In this document: positions 38,727 to 58,724 of the stretch, piece by piece
Position numbering within the stretch: position 1 is the first letter of the stretch
Layout of the letters: the number at the start of each line of letters is the position of its first letter
Assembly: GCA_902540265.1 (NCBI GenBank)
Contig: CACBLW010000001.1
Span: 66,687-130,686, forward strand
Length of the DNA: 64,000 bases
Reading direction: 5' to 3'
Origin: an uncultured Alphaproteobacteria bacterium
GTDB taxonomy: Bacteria > Pseudomonadota > Alphaproteobacteria > HIMB59 > GCA-002718135
The notes under the pieces: generated by a model
Told to the model about the DNA's origin: nothing
Database searches by the model: none
What the model saw: only the letters and a program-made list of their open reading frames with translations
Position numbers and translations under genes: made by a program

Positions 38727-39620
38727 TTACTTCATGCCTGTCAAAGTAATTCCTTCAATAAATCGTTTTTGCGCGATTATAAAAGCAACAATAAGAGGAA
38801 CTGTTACTGTAACTATCGATGCCATCATTGGACCAAATTCGTCACTATCAATTCCACCTCTAAATTCTCTTATACCAAGCGGCGGAGTAAAGAGATCTCT
38901 ATTTCCTGTTATTACCATACGAGGCCAGAAATAATCATTCCAGTGTGCAACAACTGAGAATATTGCAAAAGCAAGTAATGCTGGTATTGCAGTTGGAAGC
39001 ATTACTTTCCATACGATTGCGTACTCTCCCATGCCGTCCATCCTGGCGGCATCAATTAATTCATCAGGCACAGTCATAAAAAATTGCCGCATTAAAAAAA
39101 TTCCAAACACCGATATGGTCCAGGGAAGTATCAAGGCGGAATAGGTGTCAACTAATCCTGCCTGGGCCAACATAACATACAATGGAAGCGCAATTCCATG
39201 AACTGGAATGAGCAAGCAAAATAAAACCATTGAGAAAACAAATTCTCGCCCGTAAAACCGTAACTTAGCGAGTGCATACGCGCACGGTAAGGCGACTAAA
39301 ACCTGAATAATGAAGATTGATAAAGTAACAATGACACCATTCATTAAGTATCTAGGAATAGGCGCTTTTTCAAAAGCAAACCAATAGTTGTATTGATATG
39401 GCTTCATTGTACATGTTTCTTCTGAATAACCAGTTTTAACACATACAGGAAACGTTTGAGTTTCTTGCGCACCAATAAGACCACCAGAAATTGATTGGAT
39501 TTCTTGCTGAGATTTTAATGACATTGAAACCATCATATAAAAAGGGAGCATCACTACGATAGCACCAATAATTAAGATTGCATGCTTCCAACCTTCCCCA
39601 ATATATTGTTTAGCTTCCAT
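38727..39620 (-). CDS. CUT1-family ABC permease (UgpE/MalG-like)
   Basis: 297 aa with the EAA loop DAARMDGMGEYAIVWKVMLP. Confidence 0.85.
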   Translation of the reverse strand: MEAKQYIGEGWKHAILIIGAIVVMLPFYMMVSMSLKSQQEIQSISGGLIGAQETQTFPVCVKTGYSEETCTMKPYQYNYWFAFEKAPIPRYLMNGVIVTLSIFIIQVLVALPCAYALAKLRFYGREFVFSMVLFCLLIPVHGIALPLYVMLAQAGLVDTYSALILPWTISVFGIFLMRQFFMTVPDELIDAARMDGMGEYAIVWKVMLPTAIPALLAFAIFSVVAHWNDYFWPRMVITGNRDLFTPPLGIREFRGGIDSDEFGPMMASIVTVTVPLIVAFIIAQKRFIEGITLTGMK

Positions 39621-40576
39621 TAATAATGAACCCTCTTCTCAATGACATATCTTTGGAAAAACGTTAACACAAGAATAAATCCAATAAAGACAACAGTGAT
39701 TGCTGCACCGATACTTGTTAAGTTTTGTTGAATAGCTTTTTCAAAGATTGCATACATCATGACATATGTTGTTTTTGATGGACCACCTTTAGTAAGTATT
39801 TCGATAGTATCAAATACCTGAAATGTTCTAATGGTAGTAATAGTCACAACAAACAACGTTGTTGGACCAAGCATTGGCCATGTAACAAGTTTAAATTGCT
39901 CCCATGTAGATTTAGCACCATCCATTTCTGCAGCTTGGTATAACTCTCTTGGTATACTTGTTAAGCCAGCTAAATATAAAACCATGTTAAAACCAAAAGC
40001 CTGCCAAATTCCTATGAAACATACTGTCCAAATCGCAGTATTTTTTTGCTTTAACCAATATGGAAAATCCATGTTGTTTGCACATGCTACAGCATACCAA
40101 CTTTCTTGTGAGTCTACCCATGGCAACCAATGAAAACCAAGAATGAATTCCCTAACTCCCCCACACCCATTTGCTAAAAAACTATTTACAATTCCTAATG
40201 TTGGATGAAGAGTAAATTCCCATGCAATTGCCATTGCAAGAAGAGTTGCCATAACTGGAAGAAAGAAAATTGTTTTATATATATCAGCGCCAAATCTTAG
40301 TGAATTTAAGAGCATAGCAGCACATAATCCAAGTACAACAGAAATTGGAACGACAACAATAACATACGTCGCTGTGGCCCAAATCATTTTGACATATGTT
40401 TTTCGATTGAACATTTTGTCATAATTTTCTAGTCCAACCCACTCGAATGTTTTGTTTCCTAAATTATAGTCAGTAAAAGAAATTCCTCCTGCAAGAAAAA
40501 GAGGAAAGATTAAAATAATTATCATCAGTATGATTGCTGGTGCAATAAACCATATGTGAGCTTTTGAATTATGCAT
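39620..40576 (-). CDS. CUT1-family ABC permease (UgpA/MalF-like)
   Basis: 318 aa with the EAA loop QAAEMDGAKSTWEQFKLVTWPML. Confidence 0.85.
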   Translation of the reverse strand: MHNSKAHIWFIAPAIILMIIILIFPLFLAGGISFTDYNLGNKTFEWVGLENYDKMFNRKTYVKMIWATATYVIVVVPISVVLGLCAAMLLNSLRFGADIYKTIFFLPVMATLLAMAIAWEFTLHPTLGIVNSFLANGCGGVREFILGFHWLPWVDSQESWYAVACANNMDFPYWLKQKNTAIWTVCFIGIWQAFGFNMVLYLAGLTSIPRELYQAAEMDGAKSTWEQFKLVTWPMLGPTTLFVVTITTIRTFQVFDTIEILTKGGPSKTTYVMMYAIFEKAIQQNLTSIGAAITVVFIGFILVLTFFQRYVIEKRVHY

Positions 40577-41702
40577 TAGTAAATTGAACTCTCATTCCTA
40601 CTTGATTAAATAGTAATGCTTTATCTGAAACTCTTTTAATATTCACACTAGAACCGTTTGAAATTTGGTGTGTCAATTGTGGCAAGCCCCTTACAATTAT
40701 TTTATTTGAACCGTCTTCAATATTTACATGAAAGAAAATATCTGAACCTAAATTTTCTCTATATGCAACTGTTCCACTAAATGTATTTTCATTACTTTCA
40801 TTTGTAATTTCTAAATGTTCTGGTCGAATACCAATATGTAAATCTGTATTACTTTCAGAACTTTTTCTTTTTAAATTAACGTTGAGAAAACTTACTGTCC
40901 CACTTGAGTCCGAAGTTCCTTTAAATATATTTATTTTTGGACTTCCAACAAACTGAGCCACACTTAATGAGGAAGGATTGTCATATACTTCTTGAGGTGT
41001 ATCAAGTTGTAATAAATTTCCATCAATCATAACAGCCATTCTAGAAGACATAGTTAATGCTTCTGCTTGATCATGTGTAACGTACACAAAAGTAGTTTTA
41101 AGTGAATTATGAAGTTCAGATAGTTCAGATCGCATGTGAACTCTCAAAGCAGCATCTAAATTTGAAAGAGGTTCATCCATTAAAAAGGCAACAGGCTCTC
41201 TAACCATAGCACGACCAAGAGCAACTCTTTGTCTTTGACCACCTGACAATTGTCCAGGTTTTCTATCTAATAGTTCTGAAATTTTTAGAGTTTCAGAAGT
41301 TTTATTTACTAATTGATTTATAGATTCTGTTTTCTCTTTTTTGCTTGGTGAAAAATTACCAATTAAGGGAAGTCTTTCAAATGCATTATAATCTCTAAGT
41401 CTTAATGGAGTTTCCAAATTTCTTCTTACTGTAAGATGAGGATAAAGAGCATATGACTGGAATACCATTGCCAAATCTCTTTCACTGGCTCTAACTCTAT
41501 TTACATTTTTATTATCTATTAATACATCACCTGAAGTCTGCTGTTCCAATCCTGCAATTATTCTAAGTAATGTAGATTTACCACAACCAGATGGACCAAC
41601 TAACGTTAAGAATTCTCCATCGTTTATATCAACATTCAAATTATTCAGTACTTGGGTAGACCCAAATGACTTTGAAATATTTTTAAGTGATATTGTCCCC
41701 AC
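40569..41702 (-). CDS. ABC ATPase, UgpC/MalK type with C-terminal regulatory domain
   Basis: 377 aa with GPSGCGKST, LSGGQRQRV and FLMDEPLSNLD motifs. It has a GTG start with a GGGGGA RBS. Confidence 0.9.
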   Translation of the reverse strand: MGTISLKNISKSFGSTQVLNNLNVDINDGEFLTLVGPSGCGKSTLLRIIAGLEQQTSGDVLIDNKNVNRVRASERDLAMVFQSYALYPHLTVRRNLETPLRLRDYNAFERLPLIGNFSPSKKEKTESINQLVNKTSETLKISELLDRKPGQLSGGQRQRVALGRAMVREPVAFLMDEPLSNLDAALRVHMRSELSELHNSLKTTFVYVTHDQAEALTMSSRMAVMIDGNLLQLDTPQEVYDNPSSLSVAQFVGSPKINIFKGTSDSSGTVSFLNVNLKRKSSESNTDLHIGIRPEHLEITNESNENTFSGTVAYRENLGSDIFFHVNIEDGSNKIIVRGLPQLTHQISNGSSVNIKRVSDKALLFNQVGMRVQFTNA

Positions 41703-41878: not shown

Positions 41879-43120
41879 GTGTCCGATAATTTAGAAATTA
41901 ATAAAAGAGAATATCCAAGCTCTTTCTCAAAAACTGCTATTGTTATATGCCTTGATGGTAGTCAAAAAGAGTATCTCGAAGAAGCATCAAAATCTAATCT
42001 TACACCAAATCTTGATAAATTAATTGCAAGTGGTGAAAACCTACTTGTTCACAGCGCTATTCCAAGTTTTACAAATCCAAATAACATTTCGATTGTAACA
42101 GGCCAACCAAGTTCTGTACACGGTATATGCGGAAACTTCTTTTATACACCTGAGACGGGTGAAGAAGTAATGATGAATGACCCAAAATATATGCGAGCAC
42201 CAACTATTTTTGAAAAATTTTACAATTCTGGTTCTAAAATTGCTCTTGTTACTGCAAAAGACAAGTTGAGAACACTTTTAGGAAACGGATTAAGTTTTGA
42301 TGATGAGAGAGCTATTTGTTTTTCTGCTGAAAAATCTGATCAAGCAACAAAAGATCTCAATGGTATAGATAATGTAAACGATTGGTTGGGGATGCCAGTT
42401 CCAGAAGTATATTCTGAAGGACTTTCTGAATTTGTAATGGCTGCAGGCGTAAAACTTCTTGAGGAGTTTAAACCAAATATTATGTATTTATCGACTACGG
42501 ATTATATTCAACACAAATATGCACCGGGAAATGAAACAGCAAATAAATTTTATGCAATGTTTGATAAATATATTGGACTTTTAAATAAGGAGAATGTTTC
42601 TATAATCATCACAGCAGATCACGGAATGAAACCAAAATCAAAAGAAGATGGTTCACCTAATGCAATATTTTTACAAGATTATTTAGATAAAAAATTTGAA
42701 CCAAACATGGCTAAAGTCATCCTACCAATTACAGATCCATATGTCGTTCATCATGGTTCACTTGGTTCTTTTGCAACAATTTATTTAGAAGACAAGAGCA
42801 GGGTAGATTCAGTTGTAAATGCTATTAAAGAAATAAAAGATATAGAAGTTGTTTTAACAAAAGATGAAGGATGCTCTACTTATAATTTACCTCCTGATAG
42901 AATGGGGGATATTATATGTATGTCTTCAGAATTTATGACTATTGGTTCATCGGAAGATAAACACAATCTTTCTGGATTAAATGAACCTTTACGTTCTCAT
43001 GGAGGACTCCATGAAAGAGAAGTTCCATTCATATCAAATTTAAAATTACAAAACTTAGATACTAGAAAACAATTATATAACTATGATGCATTTTATTATG
43101 CAATAAATGGAGCCCTATGA
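41879..43120 (+). CDS. phnA: Phosphonoacetate hydrolase
   Basis: 413 aa. The N-terminal region ([53 protein letters not shown]) closely matches my recollection of the characterised Pseudomonas fluorescens 23F PhnA. Confidence 0.9.
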
Positions 43121-44559
43121 TGCACAAAAAAATGATTAATGAAGCAATGCGTATTGCTGGAGAAAAAGTTACTTCAGATAAAACAATAAATGTTGAGTAC
43201 CCTTTTACAGGTGAAGTAATCGGAACTGTTCCTGCCGGTACTGTAGAGCATGCAAGAAAGGCTTTAGATATTGCTGCAAATTACCAACCTAAACTTACAA
43301 GATACGAGAGACAAAAAATTCTTCAAACTGCTGCAGAAGTACTTGTTAAAAGAAAAGAAGAAATTTCTGATATTATTACTTTAGAACTTGGTATTTCAAA
43401 ACAAGATTCTTTATACGAAGTAGGAAGAGCTTTTGATGTCTTTTCTTTAACGGCTCAACTTTGTATTCTTGATGATGGAGAAATATTTTCTTGTGATTTA
43501 ACTCCACATGGAAAAGCGAGAAAAATATTTACCATAAGAGAGCCCTTAACGGCAATTTCAGCAATCACTCCATTTAATCACCCTTTGAATATGGTAGCGC
43601 ATAAAATTGCTCCTTCAATTGCAACTAATAATTGTACAGTATGTAAGCAGACAGAATTAACACCTTTAACAGCAATGGTACTCGCTGATGTTTTATATGA
43701 AGCAGGTCTGCCACCAGAAATGTTTTCAGTTGTAACTGGATGGCCTCAAGACATTGGATCAGAAATGATCAAAAATCCAAATATTGATCTCATTACTTTT
43801 ACAGGTAGTGTAGGTGTAGGAAAATTAATTGCTGAACAAGCTGGATACAAAAGAACAGTTCTTGAGCTAGGTGGTAATGATCCATTAATTGTTTTAAATG
43901 ACTTAGATGCTGATGATCTTAAAAAAGCTGTTGAGCTAGCTGTTACGGGAGCAACGAAAAATTCTGGTCAACGTTGTACAGCTGTTAAAAGAATACTGGT
44001 TCAAGAATCTATTGCAGATCAATTTGTTGAAATGGCTCTTGAGCGTGCTAAGAAAATTAAATTTGGTGATCCTATGAATATGGAAACAGACTTAGGTACA
44101 GTTGTTAATGCTCAAGCTGCAGAACTTTTTGATAAAAGAGTTTCTATGGCTGAAGAAGACGGTGCAAAAATTTTATATCACCCTGGAAGAAAGGGTGCTT
44201 TGTTACCTCCAATAGTTGTAGATCATGTTGATCCTAAAAGTGAATTAGTTTTAGAAGAAACATTTGGTCCAGTTATCCCAATCATTCGTGTGCCTAATGA
44301 CGATGAAGCTGTAATGAAAATATCTAATTCAACCGCATTCGGATTATCATCTGGTGTATGTACAAATAACTTCATGCGAGCAAAAAAATATATTCAAGGT
44401 TTAAATGTTGGCACTGTAAATATTTGGGAGGTTCCAGGTTATAGAATTGAAATGTCTCCTTTTGGAGGAATTAAAGATTCAGGTCTTGGTTACAAAGAGG
44501 GTGTTATTGAAGCAATGAAAAGTTTTACTAATGTAAAAACCTTTTCGCTACCTTGGTAA
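43117..44559 (+). CDS. phnY: Aldehyde dehydrogenase, phosphonoacetaldehyde dehydrogenase-like
   Basis: 480 aa ALDH (ELGGNDP, catalytic GQRCTA, EETFGPV). It overlaps the phnA stop by 4 nt. The substrate is inferred from context. Confidence 0.8.
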
Positions 44560-44695: not shown

Positions 44696-45949
44696 ATGAA
44701 AAAATTAATTACAGGATTGGCTGCCGTATTAGCTTTTGGTTTTTATGGTTCTGTTAATTCAGCTAAGTCTATTGAAATAGAAGTAGCTTATCCTTATTCA
44801 GGATTATTCGATGTAACGTTTCAAGCTATTATGCCAGAGTTTGAAAAAGCACATCCAGATATTCAAGTTAAATTTAGAGCAACTTATGAAAACTATGAGG
44901 ATGCAACTGCAACAATCTTCAGAGAGTCTACTTCAGGTAATTTACCAGATGTAACAATGCAAGGTCTTAACAGACAAGCACCTCTAGTTGACAAAGGTAT
45001 TGCTAAGTCTTTAGAGCCATTTATTGCAAAAGAAGCTGCTTTTGAAAAAGATGGTTACCATTCTGCTATGTTAAGTCTTTCAACATTCGGTGGTGAAGTT
45101 TATGGATTACCATTTTCTGTATCAACGCCAGTTGGATATTATAATATGGATTTATTAGCTGAAGCAGGTGTAAATAGTATTCCAACTAACTGGGACGAAG
45201 TTATTGCAGCATGTAATAAATTGGAAGCAGCAGGTAAAGGAACTCTATACTTTGGTTGGAACATCACAGGTAACTGGTTCCACCAAGCATTAATGCACAC
45301 TCAGAATGTTCCAATGGTTAAAGATGGAGCTGTAAATATGGGTGGTGATGCAGGACTTGCAACGTTAGAGCAAATGAAAGCAATCATGAGCGGATGTAAT
45401 ATGCCAAACTATTCAATTGCTGATGGTCAAGCTGCGTTTAACGCAGGTACTATTGGTATGATGTTCTGGTCTACTTCAAGCTTGGGTTCAGTTAATGCTG
45501 CAAAGGCAGACTTTGTTTTAAAAACTGCACCATTCCCTGGAATGGCTGGAGTTAACAATGGAACACCAGCAAGATTACCAGCAGGTGGAAACGCTGCAAT
45601 GTTAGTGTCTACATCTGATGATCCAGCAAGAGTTGATGCTGCATGGACTTTCTTAAAGTTCATTACATCAGGTATCGGTGCTGCATTAGTTGCTGAAACA
45701 ACTGGATATGTTCCACCAAACAAAGCAGCGAATGAATTATTAGGAGATTTCTATAGTAAAAACCCTAATAAACTTACTGCTGTTGAACAACTTCCACTTC
45801 TTGCAGATTGGTTTGCATATCCTGGAGAAAATGGATTAGCTGTTACACAGGTAATCTATGATTACACAGAAGAAATTGCTACAGGCGACGCTGATGATAT
45901 GGGTGATCTCCAAGAAGAAATGATGGAAGAAATAAACGATCTTATGTAA
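44696..45949 (+). CDS. Periplasmic substrate-binding protein, family 1 (UgpB/CUT1-like)
   Basis: 417 aa with a signal peptide, a GGAGGG RBS and its own strong terminator. It is the likely partner of the divergently encoded permeases and ATPase. Confidence 0.85.
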   Translation: MKKLITGLAAVLAFGFYGSVNSAKSIEIEVAYPYSGLFDVTFQAIMPEFEKAHPDIQVKFRATYENYEDATATIFRESTSGNLPDVTMQGLNRQAPLVDKGIAKSLEPFIAKEAAFEKDGYHSAMLSLSTFGGEVYGLPFSVSTPVGYYNMDLLAEAGVNSIPTNWDEVIAACNKLEAAGKGTLYFGWNITGNWFHQALMHTQNVPMVKDGAVNMGGDAGLATLEQMKAIMSGCNMPNYSIADGQAAFNAGTIGMMFWSTSSLGSVNAAKADFVLKTAPFPGMAGVNNGTPARLPAGGNAAMLVSTSDDPARVDAAWTFLKFITSGIGAALVAETTGYVPPNKAANELLGDFYSKNPNKLTAVEQLPLLADWFAYPGENGLAVTQVIYDYTEEIATGDADDMGDLQEEMMEEINDLM

Positions 45950-45980
45950 TTTGAGATTATTTATTATTAACTTTTTATTA

Positions 45981-46012
45981 CAGCGGCTTTATAAAAGCCG
46001 CTGTTTTATTTT
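45981..46012 (+). terminator. Rho-independent terminator after the binding-protein gene
   Basis: CAGCGGCTTT (45981-45990) pairs with AAAGCCGCTG (45994-46003) around a 3-nt loop, followed by TTTTATTTT. Confidence 0.75.
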
Positions 46013-46036: not shown

Positions 46037-47116
46037 ATGCCTCTTAAAACAACTACAATAGGTGCTTATCCAAAACCGAAACAAACACCTATTCAAGATT
46101 GGTTTTTAGGGACAAAATCAGAAGAAGAGAGAAAAGCGTCAAAAGGATTATTATCAAATTGGTCACCTGGCGCATATGAAAAAGCATTAGAGTCTGCAGG
46201 TGCAGATGCTGAAAAATTATTTTTAGCAGCAATTAAAGAAGTTATAACTGATCAAGTAAATGCGGGTATTGATGTTCCAACAGATGGAGAAGTCAGACGT
46301 GAGAGTTACGTATTATATCAATGTCGATTTTTAAATGGTGTAAGTTTTAAGGAAGTTACACATAAGTCAGTAAGACAAGGCGCGTTCGAAGCTGACCTTC
46401 CAACTATTGTTGCACCAATTTCAAGTAAAGAAATACGTATGTATTTAGACTGGAAGAGTGCACAACAATTTACAAAAAACCCAGTTAAAATTACGCTACC
46501 TGGACCAATGACAATTACAGATTCAATTGCTAACAATTACTATGATGACATGAAAAAACTTGGTTTTGATTTAGCATTAGCTCTCAATAAAGAAATTAAG
46601 GCACTTGTGGATGCAGGTTGTCAGTATATTCAAATTGATGAACCAGTATTTGCTAGAAAACCCGATGAAGCTCATTCATATGGTATGGAAAATTTAGAAA
46701 GAATGATGCATGGTATTCCTAAAGAAGTGCAACGCGTTTGCCATATTTGTTGTGGTTATCCTAACTCATTAGACTCAGAAGGGTATAAAAAGGCTGATCT
46801 AGATGCTTATGATAGAATTGCATCACTGGTAGATGATTCAACTATTGATGAAGTATCTTTAGAAGATTCACATAGGCATAATGATTTAAATCTTTTAGAA
46901 AAATTTACTAAAACAAAAGTAATTTTTGGATTTATTGATATTGCAAAAAGTAGAATGGAGTCTGTTGAAGAGGTAAGAGTTCGTATCAAAGATTCACTTG
47001 AACATATTGATGAACACCGCTTAATAGCTGCACCAGATTGTGGTTTAGGTTTCTTTACACGAGAACAAGCAATTGAGAAAATGACAATTCTAACTAAAGC
47101 GGCAAAATCAATTTAA
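46037..47116 (+). CDS. Cobalamin-independent methionine-synthase-II-like Zn alkyltransferase (MetE C-terminal-domain family)
   Basis: 359 aa. TIGAYPKP, DGEVRRESY and IQIDEP motifs are present. Putative Zn ligands are CHICCGY (HxC) and APDCGLGF. Confidence 0.75.
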   Translation: MPLKTTTIGAYPKPKQTPIQDWFLGTKSEEERKASKGLLSNWSPGAYEKALESAGADAEKLFLAAIKEVITDQVNAGIDVPTDGEVRRESYVLYQCRFLNGVSFKEVTHKSVRQGAFEADLPTIVAPISSKEIRMYLDWKSAQQFTKNPVKITLPGPMTITDSIANNYYDDMKKLGFDLALALNKEIKALVDAGCQYIQIDEPVFARKPDEAHSYGMENLERMMHGIPKEVQRVCHICCGYPNSLDSEGYKKADLDAYDRIASLVDDSTIDEVSLEDSHRHNDLNLLEKFTKTKVIFGFIDIAKSRMESVEEVRVRIKDSLEHIDEHRLIAAPDCGLGFFTREQAIEKMTILTKAAKSI

Positions 47117-47120
47117 GGTA

Positions 47121-48233
47121 ATGTGGAATTATTTTAATCCTGTTGAAATTATCTTTGGAGAAAATAGATTTACAGAAGTACATGATGCTCTTAAAAATAA
47201 GAACTACATCATAATCACTCATCCAGAGGAAATTTTTAAAAAATATAGCGATGAATTAAAATCTTCTTCAAATCCACCTTTATCCATTATGACCGATGTT
47301 CAGCCTAATCCAGATTATAAGGATATTTTAGAACTACAAAATAAATTTTCTTCAATCAATGAATCGGTAGATTATATTTTAGCTATAGGTGGTGGCTCTG
47401 TTACAGACACAGCTAAAGCAATTGCTGCATTTAAAGATAAACAAGAATATCTAACAGATTTCGTTCGTAATAAGAAAAATCCAAGAGTCGAAAATCCAAT
47501 CAAGATTATTGCAATACCTACAACTTCAGGAACATCAAGTGAGCTTACGTGTTGGGCCACAATTTGGGATAAAGAAAAAAACAATAAATTATCTTTGGCG
47601 CATAAATCTCTTTATGCAGAAAAAGCAATTATCGATCCATCTATTATGGTTGATAAACCTTTAGGCTTGACCATTTCAACAGGTTTAGATGCTCTCTCTC
47701 ATTCAATGGAAAGTATTTGGAATATTAATGCAAACCCAATTTCTGCTTCTCATGCAATACAAGCATCAAAATTAGTATTAGAAAATTTACCACTTCTCGC
47801 TAAAGATTTAAGAAGCGTTGAATTACGTTCAAACATTGCACTGGCATGCGTTCATGCTGGCTTAGCGTTTTCCAATACAAAAACTGCTATTGCGCACAAT
47901 CTATCATACCCTGTGACGCTCAATTACGGCATTCAACATGGTATTGCTTGTTCATTTACTTTACCCATGATTACTAAAAGTATGGTTGGAATTGATAGTG
48001 TCGCTGAAGAAAGACTAAAGTTAATTTTTAACGATAACCTTGAAAATGCCGCAAATCATCTGAGTGAATTTATGCGTTCTTTAGAGGTTCCTCTTAACTT
48101 AAATGAAATAAAAGTTCCTGTTCAAGAATGGAATAATATAGTAGATGATGCGTTTTTAGGGGAACGAGGTAAAAACTTTATTGGCAATAAAGAAGCCTTC
48201 ATCTCTTCTGCTAAATCAATGGGACTTTATTAG
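47121..48233 (+). CDS. Iron-containing (group III) alcohol dehydrogenase; candidate phosphonoacetaldehyde reductase / 2-hydroxyethylphosphonate dehydrogenase
   Basis: 370 aa. Motifs FNPVEIIFGEN, AIGGGSVTDTAK, GLDALSHSME and AIAHNLSYP are present. The substrate is inferred from the phosphonate context only. Confidence 0.8.
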   Translation: MWNYFNPVEIIFGENRFTEVHDALKNKNYIIITHPEEIFKKYSDELKSSSNPPLSIMTDVQPNPDYKDILELQNKFSSINESVDYILAIGGGSVTDTAKAIAAFKDKQEYLTDFVRNKKNPRVENPIKIIAIPTTSGTSSELTCWATIWDKEKNNKLSLAHKSLYAEKAIIDPSIMVDKPLGLTISTGLDALSHSMESIWNINANPISASHAIQASKLVLENLPLLAKDLRSVELRSNIALACVHAGLAFSNTKTAIAHNLSYPVTLNYGIQHGIACSFTLPMITKSMVGIDSVAEERLKLIFNDNLENAANHLSEFMRSLEVPLNLNEIKVPVQEWNNIVDDAFLGERGKNFIGNKEAFISSAKSMGLY

Positions 48234-48235
48234 TA

Positions 48236-49342
48236 ATGAAAAAAAATTTCAGGTTTTATGATAACAGACAAAAATACTTATTATTTGTCACAACAACAAA
48301 TGAAAAAAATCAAATTGCTGATGCGATACGCCCTCACATAAATAAAATTAAACCTCAAAAACCTGGCATAAAAATATTTGATGCTGGTATGGGTGATGGT
48401 TCCTTACTTATGAATGTTATGCGTCAGTGCCACGAGGCTAAGCCTAACGTACCTTTATTAGTTTGCACAAAAGAAATAAGCATAGAAGATGTAAGATTAG
48501 GTTTAGAAAAATTACCCGATAGGTTTGTTGAACATAAGAATACGGTTTTTGTCATTTCAAATCTACACTACGCTGAAGCTGCAAACCTAAAATCAAAAAA
48601 TGAAGTTAAACAGAAAAAAATTAATTGGAATATTATTAAATTAAAAGGAGATACCTCTCTTGAATTTGCCCAACAATTAAGAAAACAAAATGAATTTTTA
48701 GAAAAAAAATGGAATATAGAAATTAATAAAAAGTCAGGTAACCATACTTATAAAGAGCCTTCAGTCATGGTTATCTACCGCGAAGATCAAGAATTTAATG
48801 TAAATGAATTAATACCTACCAAAAAAAAATCAGATAATAAATTTGATCTTATTATTGCTTCACAGCCTTATCGTTCAAGAATCACAGCAGAAAAGAAATC
48901 AAAATATGTCATCGAACCAATGATTAGAGCGTTAAAATCAAAAGGGAAATTATTAACTATTCATGCTTCAGGAAAAGATCCTGCTAATGAAATAATTCGT
49001 AAAATTTGGCCAAAAGAGGACCCATTTCCTTCTCTTGGAAATAGTATCATTTCTTATCTTAAGAAAAATTTAGATAAAGATTTATTAAGAAGATTATCTT
49101 TTGGAGAAAAAAGAATTATTAAATGTAAATTGAGAGCTCTACCAACAGAAATCAGCGGAGGTATAGCGACATCATTAGTTTTTTCTGCTTGGAATGCCTC
49201 CATATATGTCAATCAAATGGATGACGACAAAGTAATGAAAGTAGAAAAAACTAAAAACTATGAAAAAATTGTTCAAAACATTGTTGCTAAAAATAAAGGT
49301 CTTTATTTTAACAATGAAATATTTGTAATCGAAAAAAAATAA
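48236..49342 (+). CDS. Hypothetical protein with Rossmann methyltransferase-like motif
   Basis: 368 aa. IFDAGMGDGS resembles SAM motif I, and DLIIASQPY and GKLLTIH resemble later motifs, with a long insertion between them. I recognise no characterised homolog. Confidence 0.45.
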   Translation: MKKNFRFYDNRQKYLLFVTTTNEKNQIADAIRPHINKIKPQKPGIKIFDAGMGDGSLLMNVMRQCHEAKPNVPLLVCTKEISIEDVRLGLEKLPDRFVEHKNTVFVISNLHYAEAANLKSKNEVKQKKINWNIIKLKGDTSLEFAQQLRKQNEFLEKKWNIEINKKSGNHTYKEPSVMVIYREDQEFNVNELIPTKKKSDNKFDLIIASQPYRSRITAEKKSKYVIEPMIRALKSKGKLLTIHASGKDPANEIIRKIWPKEDPFPSLGNSIISYLKKNLDKDLLRRLSFGEKRIIKCKLRALPTEISGGIATSLVFSAWNASIYVNQMDDDKVMKVEKTKNYEKIVQNIVAKNKGLYFNNEIFVIEKK

Positions 49343-49346
49343 TTTT

Positions 49347-50135
49347 TTATTTAAACCAATTAACTTCTGTTTTTAAAAAATCCTCTGTATGAATAATTAA
49401 GGCGTCAGATCGAATTATTGCAACATTATAATTTGTATCTGTATTAGCCGTTCCTAAACGATATTCATTTGAAAAGTTAGGTATTAGAGGAGACCAAGTA
49501 CTTCTTGGGGAGGAAAAAGTAATACCACAATAAGAGCCAGAACTTGTAATGTGTTGATGACCAAAAAAAATATGTTTTATTATATTATTATTTTTAGTTA
49601 AAATTTGTTGAAACTCTTTTTTTTGTTGTAATCCTATTCCATCACTTTCCTCTTTTACTAATGCCAGTGGATTATGATGCATAAAGATGTACGTATCCGT
49701 ATTAGTCTTACTTAAAATATTATTTAACCATTCTTGCCTCTCTTCACAATAATGTCCTTGGTGAGTGTTAATCAGATTAGTATCTATAAAAATTAAACGT
49801 TTATTATCTATATCCTTAAAGTATTGAATAAATCCATTTGGATCGGTTTCAATATCAGGAAAGTTTATTTTAAATTCATCTCTGTTATCATGATTACCTA
49901 TAATTAGTTGAGGATTTAAATTCTTCGGCAGACCTGCTTCATCAATTATTTTTAAAAATAACTGATAAGAATCTTTATCACCTAAGTCTGTAATATCACC
50001 TGTGATGGCAAATAAATCTGCATCACCATGATTATTTTTTATATGAGTTAATGCTTTTTTAAATTTACTGACAGGATCTATGCCATGAATCTTATCAATA
50101 TAAATATGAGGGTCTGAAAGGTGAATAATTTTCAT
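49347..50135 (-). CDS. Calcineurin-like metallophosphoesterase / phosphodiesterase
   Basis: 262 aa. Motifs HLSDPH, GDITDLGD, GNHDNR, MHHNP and GHQH are present. Confidence 0.8.
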   Translation of the reverse strand: MKIIHLSDPHIYIDKIHGIDPVSKFKKALTHIKNNHGDADLFAITGDITDLGDKDSYQLFLKIIDEAGLPKNLNPQLIIGNHDNRDEFKINFPDIETDPNGFIQYFKDIDNKRLIFIDTNLINTHQGHYCEERQEWLNNILSKTNTDTYIFMHHNPLALVKEESDGIGLQQKKEFQQILTKNNNIIKHIFFGHQHITSSGSYCGITFSSPRSTWSPLIPNFSNEYRLGTANTDTNYNVAIIRSDALIIHTEDFLKTEVNWFK

Positions 50136-50155: not shown

Positions 50156-50788
50156 TTAGATCGCAGTTTTAAAATAAATATACTTATTAAATTCCTCTTT
50201 TAAGTCGATGCTAACTCTTGCATGTACTTTACCTTGTTTTCCTTGAAACGATTGTTTTTCTGTAACTGGAAACACCCCTTCATGCCAAATATTTGGATGA
50301 ATATACAAACCTTTTGATCCGTCACAATAAAATGCTTTAAAATGTTCTGGTTCAATGTCGTCTGTAGGTAAGGCTAAAGGACAAATAAATGGTTTATTTT
50401 CTTCAGGAAAGAAAAGCTGACCTCCATCAGGATGATAATTTGCATGCCATAAAAAAATTTTTGTTGGATCTGAATATTTATCTTTTTGTAATTCTTGATC
50501 AGGATTATTGGCATAACCCAGTATATATTTTCCATCTACCTCATAATCGCTCTTATGTTGAACAGCATTATTTTGTCCATAAAGAACATCACCTTGCCAC
50601 CAGGTATCAAAAGAACCTTCGGTAGTTCCACCTTCATTACCAGTTCCCTCTTCTATGTCGCGCCATCCTTGTTTTGGCCAAGTAACAATTTCAATATCAC
50701 TATTTTCAAAACTATCGATTAAATATCCGTATCCCTTAAGATTTTCATTTGTTGCTTTAACTAATGGTATTTCAATTTCTTTTGTCAT
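50156..50788 (-). CDS. Ureidoglycolate-lyase (AllA)-like cupin-fold protein
   Basis: 210 aa. HPDGGQLFFP..KPFICPLAL..FKAFYCDGSKGLYIHPNIWHEGVF parallels the AllA-family core as I remember it. The function here is unknown. Confidence 0.55.
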   Translation of the reverse strand: MTKEIEIPLVKATNENLKGYGYLIDSFENSDIEIVTWPKQGWRDIEEGTGNEGGTTEGSFDTWWQGDVLYGQNNAVQHKSDYEVDGKYILGYANNPDQELQKDKYSDPTKIFLWHANYHPDGGQLFFPEENKPFICPLALPTDDIEPEHFKAFYCDGSKGLYIHPNIWHEGVFPVTEKQSFQGKQGKVHARVSIDLKEEFNKYIYFKTAI

Positions 50789-50795
50789 TATTTTG

Positions 50796-51893
50796 TTAGT
50801 TTAATGTTAATCCCAATTCAGTAACGACTTCTTTTACAGCTTTTATCGTATCCATCATGTCTTGTTCATCTAAATTACCAATACACCCAATTCTAAAAGT
50901 TTCTGCCACTGTTAGTTTTCCTGGATAAATTAAAAAATCTTTTTCACTAAGAGCATTATAAAATTTCTCAAAGTTAAATTTAGGATCATTAGGTTGTTTA
51001 AACGTAATAATAATTGGTGCTTGTAAATTATCAGGAAGTAGTTGCTCAAATCCCAACTCTTTCATTCCATTACAAATAATTTCACAATTTTTTTTATATC
51101 TTTTACCTCTTCCTTTTACACCGCCTTGTTCTTTATGTTCTTCAATAGCTTGGTTGAATGCAGCTAATACGTGTGTTGGAGGTGTAAATCGCCATTGTTT
51201 ATTTTTTTCCATTGCTTGCCATTGATCATACAAGTCTAGACTTAGTGAGTGACTATTGCCTTTTGCATTTTGAATAACTTCATTTTTAACAAGAATGAAA
51301 CCAACACCTGGCACACCTTCTAAGCATTTGTTTGATGAAGCGGCTACAGCATCAAAAGTAATTGTTTTAGAACTTAAGGGTAATGCACCAAAGGCACTCA
51401 TTGCATCGATGAATAACGATAAATTTTTCCCCTCAACCAATTTTGCAATGTCTTCAATAGGATTTAAAATACCCGATGTCGTTTCACAATATACAGCAAA
51501 GACGTGTGTTAAGTTGTTGCTATCAATTAAGTCTTCAATTTTATTGATGTCATGTACTTCATTTTCAGCAACTTCATATTCAATAAAATCTCTCCCTAAA
51601 TATGTGCACATTTTTTTCATTCTTTGTCCGTAAGCACCATTGATCAGAATCAGAATTTTAGAATCTTTTTGAGTAAGAGAGCTTACCATCGACTCTACGG
51701 CAAAAGTTCCACTTCCCTGCATTGGAACACATTGATATTTATCTTCACCGTCTATTAATTTAACAAGGGAATCTCTAATTGATGCATTGAGATCAATAAA
51801 TTTTGTATCTCTCGAACCCCAATCATGAAGCATAGCCTCTTTTGTTGACATCGATGTCGTGAGAGGACCAGGGGTTAATAATTTTTTATCCAT
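50796..51893 (-). CDS. phnW: 2-aminoethylphosphonate--pyruvate transaminase
   Basis: 365 aa. The N-terminus LLTPGPLTTSMSTKEAMLHDWGSRD is typical of PhnW. A class V aminotransferase core with an SNKCLEG Lys region is present. Confidence 0.9.
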   Translation of the reverse strand: MDKKLLTPGPLTTSMSTKEAMLHDWGSRDTKFIDLNASIRDSLVKLIDGEDKYQCVPMQGSGTFAVESMVSSLTQKDSKILILINGAYGQRMKKMCTYLGRDFIEYEVAENEVHDINKIEDLIDSNNLTHVFAVYCETTSGILNPIEDIAKLVEGKNLSLFIDAMSAFGALPLSSKTITFDAVAASSNKCLEGVPGVGFILVKNEVIQNAKGNSHSLSLDLYDQWQAMEKNKQWRFTPPTHVLAAFNQAIEEHKEQGGVKGRGKRYKKNCEIICNGMKELGFEQLLPDNLQAPIIITFKQPNDPKFNFEKFYNALSEKDFLIYPGKLTVAETFRIGCIGNLDEQDMMDTIKAVKEVVTELGLTLN

Positions 51894-51981: not shown

Positions 51982-52557
51982 ATGAAAATGGAAGAAAATA
52001 TTGTAGACTATCTCTTACATCTTTTGAAAACAAAAGGTGCTGATATTCAATATGGTAATGAGGATGTGACACAGCTTGAGCACGCACTCCAATGCGCTGA
52101 ACTTGCTGAAAAAAATAAATTACCAGGACCAACAATTGCTGCAGCATTACTGCATGATGTTGGCCACCTTATCTATGAGGACGGCGATCCCATTCATGAA
52201 GGGAAAGATGGTCATCATGAAAATTTAGGTGCTGATTTTTTAAAAAAATATTTTGGTGAGGATGTTATTTTACCAATTAGAGCACATGTTGACTCAAAAA
52301 GATATTTATCAAGTGTTGAAGAAGGTTATTATGATAGTCTATCAGAAGCATCGAAACTTTCGTTAAAAGTTCAAGGTGGTCCTTTCACAAAAGAAGAAGC
52401 AGATGCGTTTATAAGCAAACCTTTTATGGATGAAGCAGTAGAGCTTAGAAGATTTGATGATTTAGCAAAAATTCTAGATAAAAAAACTCCCGATGTTGAA
52501 CATTTCCGTCCCTATTTAGAAGAAGCAAGAGAGTCTTTTTTAGCTAAACAAGCGTAA
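51982..52557 (+). CDS. phnZ: HD-domain phosphonate oxygenase-like protein (PhnZ family)
   Basis: 191 aa. QLEHALQCA, AALLHDVGH, HHENLGADFL and HVDSKRYL align with the diiron ligand blocks of PhnZ as I remember them. Confidence 0.75.
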   Translation: MKMEENIVDYLLHLLKTKGADIQYGNEDVTQLEHALQCAELAEKNKLPGPTIAAALLHDVGHLIYEDGDPIHEGKDGHHENLGADFLKKYFGEDVILPIRAHVDSKRYLSSVEEGYYDSLSEASKLSLKVQGGPFTKEEADAFISKPFMDEAVELRRFDDLAKILDKKTPDVEHFRPYLEEARESFLAKQA

Positions 52558-53082
52558 ATGCAATTAAGCAACTATGATTTTATTGACTCTAAGTCATTTG
52601 CAGGAAAAATTATATTAACTTCTTTCCCAGGTCTTAACTCTAATGGTTTATTTGAAGAAACAATTTTAGCAAACGAATTAGAAATATTTAAAAATAATAA
52701 TTGTAGTTCTATTACTTCTTTTGTTGAAGATAGCGAATTTGAAAAATTGTGTGATAAAACTTTGTTTGTCAAAAATATTTATGAACATAAATTACATTGG
52801 TACCATTTACCCATTTATGACATGGGAGCACCAGATAAAGATTTTAAATATAAATGGGAAACAACAAAAGTTTTATTAAAGAACGAATTGATAGATGGTA
52901 AAAATATAGTCTTACATTGTCGTGGAGGAAAAGGAAGAGCTGGCACTATAGCTGCTATTTTACTTGTTGAATTTAATTATGAAAAACAAGAAGCTATTGA
53001 TTTAGTGCGATCAAGAAGAAAAGGAGCTATTGAGTCAAAAATCCAAGAAGATTTTATTTTTTCTTATCGAGCAGTTAATTAA
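52558..53082 (+). CDS. Dual-specificity / PTP-like CX5R phosphatase
   Basis: 174 aa with the active-site loop HCRGGKGRAGT. Its start abuts the phnZ-like stop (TAAATG). Confidence 0.7.
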   Translation: MQLSNYDFIDSKSFAGKIILTSFPGLNSNGLFEETILANELEIFKNNNCSSITSFVEDSEFEKLCDKTLFVKNIYEHKLHWYHLPIYDMGAPDKDFKYKWETTKVLLKNELIDGKNIVLHCRGGKGRAGTIAAILLVEFNYEKQEAIDLVRSRRKGAIESKIQEDFIFSYRAVN

Positions 53083-54131
53083 AAAGAGACCGTTAAATTA
53101 AAAATATTTTCTAGAATAAATAAAACAATTAAAGAAATTAAAGCTGCAATTATAGGTAGCGTCATCCAACCCAAAGAAATTCTACCTGCAATTGACCATT
53201 GAACCTCTTTTCCTCCTTTTAAAAGACCAATTCCAATTACGCCGCCGACAACAGCTTGGGAACTTGATACTGGTACCAAAGGTATAGAGGGAAGATTTAT
53301 AGATTGTAAAAAAGCACTTATACCCTGGGATGCAAATAAAAATAAAACAATAGAATGCGATATAACAACAATAAATGCTGCCACTGGTGTCATTTTTAAG
53401 AGATCATTACCCACGGTAAACATAACTCTTTTCGAGTAAGTAAAAACACCAACAGCTATTGCTAAACCACCCAGCAGAAATAATTGTTCTTTTGAGGAAA
53501 AGACAAATAAATTTCCAATAGTAACATCAGTAAACGGTGATATAGGTACGAAGACACCCATTACATTGGCAATATTGTTTGCACCTAAACTATAAGCACC
53601 AAAAGCACCCGCTAAAAGTAAAGCTGTTCTTGTATAGGCATCAAGTCTGAGAATATGTAACTTTCTATTGAGTATAACTCTTTTTGTAAAAGTAAATAAA
53701 CCCATTGCAATAACTCCTGCAATGATAGGGCAGAGTATCCATGTTCCTAAAATAGTAATTAAAACTTGAAGATTAGTTGAAGATCCCGTGTATAAATTCC
53801 AACCAACAATTGCTCCAACAATCGCTTGCGTTGTTGAAACAGGCAAGCCAACTTTGGTCATTAAATAAACGGATATGCCTGCAGCCACACATGCTGCAAA
53901 GGCACCAGGTAATGCATTAATAGCACCTAACTTACCTAAAGTTTCTGTTGTTCCTGCTCCACTAATAATTGCACCTAGAATAACAAAGACACTACAAATT
54001 ATTGCTGCACTTGTGAAACTAACCATTCGTGTTCCAACTGCAGTTCCAAAAACATTTGCTGCATCATTGGCACCAAGTGACCAACCTAAAAAAAAACCAC
54101 CAAATAAAAAAATTAGAATTGTAATTTCCAT
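53079..54131 (-). CDS. pit: Inorganic phosphate transporter, PiT (PHO4) family
   Basis: 350 aa. The motif GANDAANVFGTAVG occurs at the N-terminus and GANNIANVMG in the repeat. The protein is polytopic. Confidence 0.9.
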   Translation of the reverse strand: MEITILIFLFGGFFLGWSLGANDAANVFGTAVGTRMVSFTSAAIICSVFVILGAIISGAGTTETLGKLGAINALPGAFAACVAAGISVYLMTKVGLPVSTTQAIVGAIVGWNLYTGSSTNLQVLITILGTWILCPIIAGVIAMGLFTFTKRVILNRKLHILRLDAYTRTALLLAGAFGAYSLGANNIANVMGVFVPISPFTDVTIGNLFVFSSKEQLFLLGGLAIAVGVFTYSKRVMFTVGNDLLKMTPVAAFIVVISHSIVLFLFASQGISAFLQSINLPSIPLVPVSSSQAVVGGVIGIGLLKGGKEVQWSIAGRISLGWMTLPIIAALISLIVLFILENIFNLTVSF

Positions 54132-54137
54132 TGAAAA

Positions 54138-54800
54138 TTAAACGGAACGTTTAATAGCGTAAATTTGAACCTCGTCAGCTATGTCTTCTGCTTGATCACA
54201 AATACGATCAATTTTTTCTACAAAATATCGAAGATGCATTTTTTGATCTAGAGGTAATTCAGAATCAAAAATTCTTCTTGCAAGTGAACTAAATTTTATA
54301 TCAGATTCTTTTTCATAAAAAGTTACTTTATGAGCATTATCTCTAACAGATTTAATATCTCTAAAAAATGATCGGACAGTCAAACAAAGTGACTCAACAC
54401 AATTTACAACAGTCTCTGTTAACTCAATAAGATCTTCATGAAATTCTTTTGGAAAATTAGGTTTTTGAATAGAGAAGTGATAGCAATTTCCTTGGTACAT
54501 TCCAATTAATTCGTCGATGTGTTCTAGAAGTCGTAACACATCACTTCTTGCATCTGGGATTAGTGTTTCTTCATAAAGAGTATGCTCAACATCTTTTGTA
54601 ATTTTGTCGGCCTTACTTTCCATTTCTTTAACTTTTTCAACCATTTCCTCAAATTTACCATTGGCGGAATGATTGAGATAAGTTGGAACTATCGATTTAA
54701 ATACCAAACCTACTTCAGAGACAATATCAACAAACTCATCAATTTCTCTTTCAAGCTTTTTGGTATCACCAAATAATGATGCACTTTTTAATCCAAACAT
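54138..54800 (-). CDS. DUF47 / PhoU-like Pit accessory protein (TIGR00153 type)
   Basis: 220 aa and helical. It lies upstream of pit in the canonical pairing. Confidence 0.8.
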   Translation of the reverse strand: MFGLKSASLFGDTKKLEREIDEFVDIVSEVGLVFKSIVPTYLNHSANGKFEEMVEKVKEMESKADKITKDVEHTLYEETLIPDARSDVLRLLEHIDELIGMYQGNCYHFSIQKPNFPKEFHEDLIELTETVVNCVESLCLTVRSFFRDIKSVRDNAHKVTFYEKESDIKFSSLARRIFDSELPLDQKMHLRYFVEKIDRICDQAEDIADEVQIYAIKRSV

Positions 54801-54923
54801 GGCGTGCTTATAGAACTTTTCAAAAAAAAAGAAAGAAATGTTAAATTTTTGTTACAATTTGATTAATATCTTTATCTTTAAGTAAAGTGTAATATTCGCA
54901 ATCTATAGAATTTAGGAGAAGAT

Positions 54924-55151
54924 ATGACAGATTTATCAATTAATAGAATTAAGTGGTTTAGCACCGCGTTAATTTTATCAGGAATATTATTAACCAATTT
55001 AAATGCGTATCCAATTAACATAATTATTCACGGTACAGGTGCTGTTGGTTGGTCAATTGTTGGTTATATGACAAAAGATAGAGCTCTGCTCACAAACTTT
55101 GGTTTACAACTCCCACTATTTATTTTTGGATATATTTATTTGCTAACATGA
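54924..55151 (+). CDS. Small 3-TM membrane protein (75 aa)
   Basis: A GGAGAAG RBS is present and there are three hydrophobic segments. Its stop overlaps the arsC-like start (ATGA). Confidence 0.45.
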   Translation: MTDLSINRIKWFSTALILSGILLTNLNAYPINIIIHGTGAVGWSIVGYMTKDRALLTNFGLQLPLFIFGYIYLLT

Positions 55152-55567
55152 AAAATAAAAATATTCTTTTTATGTGTGTTGCTAATTCAGCAAGAAGTCA
55201 AATGGCTGAAGGAATTGCAAAAAAATTATATCCTAATTGCATTATTCAAAGTGCAGGATCAGTGCCCAAAGAAGTTAATCCTAATGCTATCGAGGTTATG
55301 GGTGAAATCGATATTGATATATCAAAACATTATTCAAAAGATTTTGAAAGCTTAGACAACAAATTTAGAGATGAATTAAATACCGTTTTTACGCTTTGTA
55401 AAGAAGAGGTATGTCCAGTTTTAAATTCCAAAGCTCAGATATTTTCAATACCATTTGATGATCCGGCATCAGATCATTTTAGTTCAAACCAATTAGATAA
55501 ATTTAGAGAAGTAAGAGATTCAATTTTTGATAAATTGAAAGAACTAAAAAATTTATTTGAGAATTAA
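55148..55567 (+). CDS. arsC: LMW-PTP-fold arsenate reductase-like protein
   Basis: 139 aa with the P-loop CVANSARS (CX5R) and a second Cys pair, LCKEEVCP, as in thioredoxin-coupled ArsC. Assignment as ArsC rather than LMW-PTP is not certain. Confidence 0.65.
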   Translation: MKNKNILFMCVANSARSQMAEGIAKKLYPNCIIQSAGSVPKEVNPNAIEVMGEIDIDISKHYSKDFESLDNKFRDELNTVFTLCKEEVCPVLNSKAQIFSIPFDDPASDHFSSNQLDKFREVRDSIFDKLKELKNLFEN

Positions 55568-55704
55568 TGAAGTTAAAAATTAATTAAATTTATAAAAATT
55601 TAATATTCCATTAATCTATTTGTAAACAATAAAATTTAAATGTTTCTTACCACTCACAGTATTATTTCCTCCTGCTAATTACCAATAATTGTGAGTGGGA
55701 TTAA
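55508..55704 (+). repeat. Direct repeat copy A (last 20 codons of the arsC-like gene plus a downstream hairpin element)
   Basis: It aligns end to end with 58520-58715, at roughly 80-85% identity by my hand alignment. The first 20 nt are identical, and so are several 15-20-nt blocks. Confidence 0.85.
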
Positions 55705-55778
55705 TTTTTTATTTCTCCTTTTTCGAGTACTTTAACAATTGTTTAACATTATAAAATTAAGAATTTAAAGTAAATTTT

Positions 55779-56621: not shown

Positions 56622-56699
56622 TACTTCTGTAAAAAAAAAATTTAGTTAATGTAATTGAAATAAAATTTTAACAAATTCTTTCTATTATTTATTAATAAA

Positions 56700-58498: not shown

Positions 58499-58519
58499 TT
58501 TTAAAATTATAGTTACTAA

Positions 58520-58715: not shown

Positions 58716-58724
58716 ATTCCATTT

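Follow-up and report, generated by a model that had tools for sequence, protein, structure and literature searches.

Why should genes for a methionine-synthase-like protein, for an alcohol dehydrogenase and for a 368-residue protein of no named family stand almost touching each other among the genes of a phosphonate island? The question is raised by a 64,000-nucleotide stretch of DNA from an uncultured alphaproteobacterium (GenBank contig CACBLW010000001.1; the whole stretch is called here the window). The three genes, referred to below as the triad, occupy its plus strand at 46037-47116 (the MetE-like protein, 359 residues), 47121-48233 (the alcohol dehydrogenase or ADH, 370 residues) and 48236-49342 (the 368-residue protein, named X368), with spacers of 4 nucleotides between the first and the second gene and of 2 nucleotides between the second and the third. 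Each gene is present in one copy within the window and, since the families count thousands of homologues apiece (5157 for X368 and, at E<=1e-20, 4641 for the MetE-like protein), these are genuine genes and not chance open reading frames. The triad follows a plus-strand hairpin at 45980-46004, made of 11 pairs, six of them G-C, and continued by the T-run TTTATTTT, which lies just 3' of a binding-protein gene and has the features of a terminator or attenuator. A previous sequence-only reading of the locus had reported this layout, as well as the motifs HxC and PDCGL in the first protein and DAGMGDGS in the third; the open reading frames, the hairpin and the translations agree with it on all of these.

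The comparison with other genomes showed that the triad is modular and not obligate. As to its function, the explanation preferred here, to which we assign a probability of roughly 0.4, is a composite one: the three genes would be accessory modules of a SAR11-type phosphorus-stress and phosphonate island, devoted to the homocysteine-dependent harvest of methyl groups from an imported methylated organophosphorus compound. The term SAR11-type is taken from the labels of the nearest relatives of the window, which are single-cell genomes assigned to uncultured Alphaproteobacteria or to Pelagibacteraceae, and it probably describes the island adequately.

The MetE-like gene and its importer

The survey of other genomes took in the best 80 loci per scan, many of which share close phylogenetic kinship, and genes in the high-G+C loci were called by a simple open reading frame finder. 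In all 18 related island loci, which were retrieved with X368 itself as the query, X368 was placed between phnY (or the ADH gene) and an esterase gene. The MetE-like gene, the binding-protein gene and the upstream ABC genes were absent, all together, from L001, L011, L015, L016 and L018, and the ADH gene was absent from L015 and L018. As each gene of the triad is individually missing somewhere, the triad has to be considered as three separable modules, and the fixed, phosphonate-specific three-gene unit initially proposed was not supported.

Within the SAR11-type islands the MetE-like gene occurs only with the binding-protein gene and the upstream ABC genes, and this linkage recurs elsewhere. 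Orthologues with 50-73% identity are found in many marine bacteria, and in at least 13 distinct contigs (L083, L091-L099, L102, L106 and L121) the MetE-like gene directly follows genes encoding an ATPase, two permeases and a binding protein, the importer components being about 60-70% identical to those of the window. Several neighbours of this cassette are phosphonate genes: it adjoins genes for a bona fide PhnY (793 bits) and a bona fide PhnA (521 bits) in L094, for PhnA (480 bits) in L105 and for PhnW (506 bits) in L132. MetE-like genes also abut alcohol dehydrogenases from three unrelated families, namely PhpC-type iron enzymes (the window, L087 and L121), TIGR03366-like zinc enzymes (L091, L098 and L105) and dehydrogenases of the NAD_binding_2 type (L093-L095), and X368 homologues flank the cassette in L093, L095 and L115.

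A second set of neighbours is of another kind. In L120 (1436-4108) the MetE-like orthologue is directly followed by a gene for an MttB-family (PF06253) methyltransferase, an arrangement that suggests a route for methyl groups from a quaternary amine to homocysteine, and a TmpB-like HD oxygenase (199 bits) and a cupin are encoded beside it. In L083 (6067-16925) a 72%-identical MetE-like gene lies beside genes for a BCCT transporter, a Ugp-like importer and a metallophosphoesterase, together with a fusion of a URO-D and a corrinoid domain that resembles MtgC and an MTHFR gene with DUF5981. In L094 and L098 the cassette has beside it genes for aldehyde dehydrogenases related to betaine-aldehyde dehydrogenase. 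The cassette often lies away from phn genes.

The protein itself was classified as a core, single-barrel zinc enzyme of the MetE family and a predicted homocysteine S-methyltransferase. Pfam recognized Meth_synt_2 (3e-35) in residues 53-357 of 359, with no Meth_synt_1 and no second barrel, and the best solved relative was 3RPD (5e-44, 154 bits), a protein identified as MesD (Price et al. 2021, PMC7857596). The motifs TTTIGAYP, DGE (with Glu85), IDEP (with Asp201), HICCGY (236-241), SLE (with E276) and PDCGLG (333-338) were located in its sequence. The zinc ligands H236-I-C238, E276 and C335 align with the HICY, SLE and NCG segments of 3RPD and are invariant in the subfamily, and Glu85 and Asp201, equivalent to the E. 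coli residues Glu484 and Asp599 that bind the amino group of homocysteine, are conserved. The position equivalent to E. coli Ser433 in TTTIG(A/S)YP, a motif matched by eye, is Ala in the window and Ser in some orthologues. From these motifs, the MetE-like protein is predicted to retain homocysteine binding.

The likeness to MesD includes the single Meth_synt_2 barrel without a folate-binding N-terminal domain, the zinc ligands, the Glu/Asp pair for the homocysteine amino group and the occurrence in aerobic bacteria. However, MesD has MesX as its partner, whereas the conserved neighbour of the window subfamily is an ABC importer and not MesX or a corrinoid protein. No gene for DUF1852 (MesX) was present among the annotated genes at 36-61 kb, which argues that the MetE-like protein is not MesD. 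The subfamily, whose orthologues have a mean column identity of 73%, also differs from MesD in its invariant N-terminal insert, where aromatic and acidic residues (DWF, W43, YE) abound, and in an HxCC motif of its own. The core-synthase models PRK09121 and PRK04326 gave the window protein 194-197 bits against cut-offs of 392-406 (196 versus 392 on the MesD-type models), its score is far under all the NCBIfam methionine-synthase cut-offs, and it does not reach the approximately 55% identity to characterised MesD used as a threshold (PMC7857596). The missing DUF1852 gene and the low scores led to the rejection of a MesD/MesX system.

A different comparison is offered by BHMT, MmuM and Bmt. These PF02574 (S-methyl_trans) enzymes belong to a fold family unrelated to that of the MetE-like protein (PF01717), and PF02574 was not matched by any window protein, but the two share their predicted chemistry, in which a homocysteine thiolate activated by zinc takes the methyl group directly from an onium donor. 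In the sister genome L001, a PF02574 gene of the BHMT/HMT family stands at the equivalent island position, directly after X368. This substitution, together with the recurrent phn, TmpB-like and quaternary-amine neighbours, makes the analogy with betaine-homocysteine methyl transfer drawn by the sequence-only reading a reasonable one. Its notion of a methyl-handling enzyme was thus supported in outline by the zinc and homocysteine sites and by the genomic context, with a putative methyl donor. SAR11 bacteria have been reported to be without MetE, MetH and split MetH, to rely probably on Bhmt for methionine, and to need reduced sulfur compounds as well as methyl donors, glycine betaine among them (PMC12478193).

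The alcohol dehydrogenase and X368

The ADH presents the two domains of the PF00465 fold, Fe-ADH (5e-36) and ADH_Fe_C (3e-32), and its best NCBIfam model was TIGR03405, for phosphonate-associated iron alcohol dehydrogenases, with 364.4 bits (the next model gave 158 bits, and the choline dehydrogenase model 123 bits). The reference enzyme for this group is PhpC, whose homologues in degradative clusters oxidise 2-hydroxyethylphosphonate (HEP) to phosphonoacetaldehyde (Piazza et al. 2026, PMC13576164). PhpC uses Asp191, His195, His260 and His274 as metal ligands and Lys157, Arg349 and Thr256 as a clamp, and its diagnostic Tyr264 is replaced by Phe in sulfoacetaldehyde reductases (PMC13576164). 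The window ADH has D190, H194, H259 and H273 at the metal site, matching the four PhpC ligands, and its clamp residues K156, R349, T255 and Y263 are present and are conserved in four homologues, the correspondence with PhpC resting on residue numbers rather than on an aligned P. fungorum sequence. In fold, metal site, clamp and adjacency to phnY and phnA, the ADH is therefore like a PhpC-type HEP dehydrogenase, from which it differs in scoring under the trusted cut-off of TIGR03405. The oxidation of HEP to phosphonoacetaldehyde, anticipated by the sequence-only reading, is accordingly kept here as a prediction, in which the role of the family was established experimentally elsewhere and the membership is judged from residues and context. 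The occurrence of phpC in 2-aminoethylphosphonate (AEP) catabolic operons of marine genomes had already been noted (Lockwood et al. 2022), and the ADH represents a further example of a published enzyme class, with nothing new in it.

X368 had been left without a characterised relative, with the advice to run profile searches and to model its structure. The searches assigned it to no Pfam or NCBIfam family (only a sub-threshold match to Methyltransf_31 appeared) and gave zero matches in the PDB, with either the single sequence or a profile. The AlphaFold2 model, built with 24 diverse homologues, reached a pLDDT of 91.9 and a pTM of 0.90, and all its strong Foldseek matches were SAM (S-adenosylmethionine)-dependent small-molecule methyltransferases, the best one being histamine N-methyltransferase (1jqd and 2aow, 2e-10). 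X368 thus has a class I SAM-dependent methyltransferase fold in the model and is predicted to be a small-molecule methyltransferase similar to histamine N-methyltransferase, with which it shares a Rossmann-type core, a substrate-binding insert and an N-terminal lid, while the identity is 12-14% and X368 is about 80 residues longer. Class I enzymes of this kind carry a glycine-rich motif I and an acidic ribose-binding residue, and both are found in X368: motif I is FDAGMGDGS (residues 48-56), and DAGMGDG, E80 and N109 are conserved, which fits SAM binding. The charged residues D9, R11, E23, K24, R182 and D184 are invariant or nearly so, which points to a polar or zwitterionic substrate.

The family comprises 774 representatives at 50% identity and is present in at least 567 GTDB species. 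Some homologues have N-terminal extensions, in which no Pfam domain was found. In the metagenomic protein P0211 an X368-like sequence, represented by its N-terminal half, is joined to a membrane methyltransferase domain of the PEMT/ICMT type; the fusion may be genuine or may have arisen in assembly. A fusion of X368 with an MTHFR-like protein was considered as well: P0154 carries both parts but also Arg/Ala-rich junk typical of frameshifts, and was not used, and P0200 and P0133 gave no real match as such fusions.

The X368 copies of the islands form one clade, sister to the copies of Pelagibacteraceae, and no second copy per island genome appeared among the matches listed. The two clades have zero flanking genes in common, so that the island position of X368 cannot be attributed to inherited synteny, an explanation that was rejected on these grounds. 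The 23 Pelagibacteraceae loci have no phn genes; there, X368 neighbours a formate-tetrahydrofolate ligase gene, or else genes for a MetY-type sulfhydrylase and a hydrolase, with a GcvT-family gene and a divergent MTHFR-like gene a few kb away. In 23 of 40 further loci, which come from other Proteobacteria and a single Rhodothermales genome, the next gene after X368 is a divergent MTHFR-like one, and behind it often stand metK, a PfkB kinase gene, ahcY and fhs; a core-MetE gene lies within 10 kb of X368 in 17 of the 40. In Steroidobacteraceae, X368 comes directly after one or two core-MetE genes. These neighbourhoods tie X368 to the methionine/SAM/one-carbon cycle and to core-MetE genes, and not specifically to phosphonates, contrary to what had been assumed from the window. 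Occurrence away from phosphonate genes was found to be the rule for X368 and partly so for the MetE-like gene.

Two of these arrangements deserve description. In soil and freshwater Proteobacteria (L045, 10001-17890; also L047, L048, L050 and L059), X368 is the first gene of an apparent operon that continues with the divergent MTHFR-like gene, metK, the PfkB kinase gene, ahcY and the formate-tetrahydrofolate ligase gene; the MTHFR-like protein was matched weakly, at about 1e-8, by the canonical MetF models. The Steroidobacteraceae cluster (L053, 6182-16526; also L046, L054, L060, L062 and L065) consists of a core-MetE gene, a gene for a glyoxalase-fold protein, a second, divergent core-MetE gene and X368, beside which lie genes for an intradiol dioxygenase, a TonB receptor, an IclR regulator, a CoA-transferase III and a citryl-CoA-lyase-like protein. 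It may be a catabolic cluster for aromatic methyl ethers.

No riboswitch preceded the MetE-like gene or X368, as the Rfam search of 37-56 kb gave zero matches at E<=1. Neither was one found at the gathering score in seven X368 loci, where the sole match was an IMES-2 RNA motif (163 bits, L019 1497-1637) of a Pelagibacteraceae genome, at a distance of about 8 kb from X368.

A proposed methyl harvest and the competing explanations

In the model favoured here, the MetE-like enzyme would methylate homocysteine at the expense of the imported organophosphorus compound or of one of its products, and would thereby yield methionine in an organism otherwise devoid of MetE and MetH. The likeliest donors would be onium compounds: N,N,N-trimethyl-2-aminoethylphosphonate (TMAEP), or glycine betaine, were it freed from TMAEP by a TmpB-type oxygenase. 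Glycine betaine, the product expected of TmpB, is itself a methyl donor. Onium donors fit best with the PF02574 substitution, with the MttB, BCCT and corrinoid neighbours, with the HD oxygenase of the island and with the reported absence of MetE and MetH from SAR11. The ADH would oxidise HEP to phosphonoacetaldehyde for PhnY and PhnA, and X368 would consume SAM made from the new methionine, regenerate homocysteine and pass the methyl group on. For 2-(trimethylammonio)ethylphosphonate, a TmpA/TmpB pathway has been described (PMC9296572). The window resembles it in having a PhnZ/TmpB-type HD oxygenase gene downstream, and L120 has a closer one; it differs in that the window lacks a TauD/BBOX-type hydroxylase gene and its oxygenase scores below all trusted cut-offs.

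Several observations weigh against this composite model. The methyl donor is a candidate, chosen by inference, and no gene for a TmpA-type hydroxylase is near that of the HD oxygenase among the annotated window genes. L011, L015, L016 and L018 have X368 but no MetE-like gene, and L107 and L121 carry the MetE-like gene and the ADH gene with X368 absent, which speaks against an obligatory, strict relay of methyl groups. The importer and phn genes are both lacking near several MetE-like orthologues (L085 and L089), the 364.4 bits of the ADH fall short of the trusted cut-off of TIGR03405 (423.7), and X368, as a SAM-consuming sink, would cost ATP. Finally, N-demethylation does not account for the adjacency of MetE-like genes to alcohol dehydrogenases, which keeps alive the explanations based on O-demethylation and on glycerophosphocholine or choline. 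A bolder version of the model makes the MetE-like protein a fifth core methionine synthase family, with the importer as its partner, that would demethylate TMAEP or an O-methylated derivative of HEP in a hitherto undescribed reaction dependent on homocysteine, and makes X368 a new methyltransferase family that closes the homocysteine cycle; we consider it doubtful in this full form, though worth stating.

The leading competing explanation is that housekeeping genes hitch-hiked: a MesD-like synthase with an endogenous donor and a general methyl-cycle X368 would have landed in a hypervariable phosphorus island and play no role in organophosphorus catabolism. The X368 family is overwhelmingly found outside phosphonate clusters, some MetE-like orthologues stand alone and each triad gene is dispensable on its own in related islands, as such a history would predict. 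It does not predict, however, that the MetE-like gene should co-vary perfectly with the importer in SAR11-type islands, follow it in at least 13 distinct contigs and recur beside PhnY, PhnA, PhnW and HEP-type alcohol dehydrogenase genes in unrelated lineages, nor that X368, which has no flank synteny with its sister clade, should be kept between phnY/ADH and the diesterase in 18/18 islands; a MesD-like synthase is further disfavoured by the missing MesX/DUF1852 gene and by scores far under the MesD-type models. We regard hitch-hiking as unlikely, yet as a rival to be taken seriously. It is somewhat less probable that the MetE-like enzyme moves a methyl group to homocysteine from an O-methylated phosphonate, such as a methyl ether or ester of HEP, and so frees HEP for the ADH. 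This would explain why MetE-like orthologues lie beside three unrelated alcohol dehydrogenase families, two of them of phosphonate-associated types, and the core-MetE paralogues and X368 located by intradiol ring-cleavage dioxygenases in Steroidobacteraceae would suit the demethylation of aryl methyl ethers. We know of no natural methylated HEP of this kind, though, the direct attack of a thiolate on a methyl ether that is not activated is difficult chemistry, and L001, L011 and L016 have the ADH but no MetE-like gene.

A role in the salvage of glycerophosphocholine and choline appears less probable again. Here, glycerophosphocholine would be brought in by the Ugp-like importer and cleaved by the GpdQ-like diesterase for its phosphate, an ADH and an aldehyde dehydrogenase would turn the choline into glycine betaine, and the MetE-like protein would act as a non-homologous betaine-homocysteine methyltransferase. 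The binding protein and the ATPase of the window do resemble UgpB and UgpC, and the top solved relative of the esterase is GpdQ, but their scores are all far below the equivalog cut-offs, and to our knowledge the classical ugp and gpdQ loci carry no MetE-like gene. The BCCT transporter and MtgC-like protein of L083, the betaine-aldehyde-dehydrogenase-related genes by the cassette in L094 and L098 and the PF02574 substitute gene of L001 would agree with choline salvage, whereas the window ADH retains the Lys/Arg/Tyr phosphonate clamp of PhpC and obtains 123 bits on the choline dehydrogenase model versus 364 on TIGR03405, and the sole aldehyde dehydrogenase here is a bona fide PhnY. The least probable proposal, and an improbable one, is a biosynthetic methylation: under phosphate stress, X368 would make a methylated product required by the cell, for example an N-methylated aminophosphonate, a lipid head group or an osmolyte, and the MetE-like protein would do no more than supply methionine and SAM for this. 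X368 does cluster elsewhere with metK, ahcY, pfkB, MTHFR-like genes and fhs, as is typical of high-flux methylation pathways, one of its homologues is fused to a PEMT domain, and the island holds lipid-remodelling genes for a PlcP-like esterase and a glycosyltransferase. Yet that fusion is a single metagenomic protein, the genes around the triad are catabolic (PhnW, PhnY, PhnA, the importer and the esterase), and neither pepM nor any other biosynthetic gene is found among the annotated window genes.

The surrounding island and its meaning

The importer genes of the window are split by phnA and phnY of the hydrolytic AEP route. On the minus strand lie two permease genes of the Ugp-like ABC importer (38727-39620 and 39620-40576), whose L002 orthologues are annotated BPD_transp_1 and whose products are 60-73% identical to the permeases preceding MetE-like genes in L083 and L091-L098, and a gene for a UgpC/MalK-like ATPase (40569-41702; ABC_tran plus TOBE_2 in Pfam, 388 bits on the NCBIfam UgpC subfamily). 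They are followed on the plus strand by phnA, for phosphonoacetate hydrolase (41879-43120; TIGR02335, 467.5 bits against a cut-off of 407.55), phnY, for phosphonoacetaldehyde dehydrogenase (43117-44559; TIGR03250, 798 against 636), and the gene for a periplasmic binding protein of the CUT1/UgpB type (44696-45949), an SBP_bac_1/8 protein whose closest solved relatives bind glycerol-3-phosphate and sugars. Its assignment as AepX, PhnD or PhnS was discarded, as it belongs neither to pfam13343, the family for AepX and AepS, nor to Phosphonate-bd; AepX is a member of pfam13343 (PMC8316502).

Beyond the triad, and on the minus strand, are located the genes for a GpdQ/Rv0805-like metallophosphoesterase (49347-50135; Metallophos, with 2zo9/2dxl and Rv0805 as top PDB relatives), for a ureidoglycolate-lyase-like cupin (50156-50788; PF04115 at 4e-10) and phnW, for AEP:pyruvate transaminase (50796-51893; NF010006, 511 bits against a cut-off of 296). 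The PhnW, PhnY and PhnA genes of the AEP route are thus close neighbours in the island, and all score above trusted cut-offs. The esterase is likely a phospho- or phosphono-diesterase, judging from its relatives; an equivalent gene lies between the binding-protein and MetE-like genes in L099 and L102 and adjoins the cassette in L083. In L001 (13221-19248) and L011 a second, different ABC importer and a 479-residue GDPD glycerophosphodiesterase are encoded between the esterase and the cupin, where they stand in for the importer/MetE-like cassette.

The HD-domain phosphonate oxygenase gene, PhnZ/TmpB-like, is found on the plus strand at 51982-52557, 2.6 kb downstream of the triad, and its product remains under all trusted cut-offs (TIGR03276, 201.8 bits against 214.6; TmpB model, 155.7; PhnZ1, 154). 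No TauD/BBOX-type hydroxylase (PhnY* or TmpA) is encoded near it among the annotated window genes, for which reason the cupin may be its missing partner. The cupin family contains 5353 proteins; its gene adjoins phnW in every one of these islands and is paired with an HD oxygenase gene both in the window and in the unrelated contig L120 (4192-5451). An AlphaFold2 model of the cupin was too poor (pLDDT 44.5) and was not used. Further on, at 53079-60824, the window encodes PHO4, PhoU_div, a low-molecular-weight phosphatase/ArsC-like protein, an acyltransferase, a PlcP-like metallophosphoesterase with a GT4 glycosyltransferase, and polyphosphate kinase. This gene content places the triad inside a broad phosphorus-stress island. 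The window as a whole is AT-rich (G+C about 31%), and one segment, 14001-18000, has a G+C of about 0.25, versus about 0.31-0.35 in the rest, and may be hypervariable or horizontally acquired.

A literature search of incomplete coverage found no paper that places a MetE-family or X368-type protein in phosphonate clusters. Neither the importer/core-MetE cassette nor the X368 family has been characterised, and it is new that the two are repeatedly associated with each other. The known accessory enzymes of the hydrolytic phosphonate pathways are PbfA-G and PhpC, and the arrangement described here would add an ancillary step to these pathways. Both the cassette and the X368 family have thousands of metagenomic members, so that a single result in enzymology could annotate many genes. 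SAR11-type bacteria dominate the surface ocean, and a core-MetE gene tied to an importer in a phosphorus-stress island would link the scavenging of phosphonates or phosphodiesters to methionine supply and to the oxidation of methyl groups. Should the MetE-like protein indeed constitute a fifth core methionine synthase family, X368 would hand the methyl group to one-carbon metabolism, and a source of both methionine and energy would be linked to phosphate stress in SAR11-type cells.

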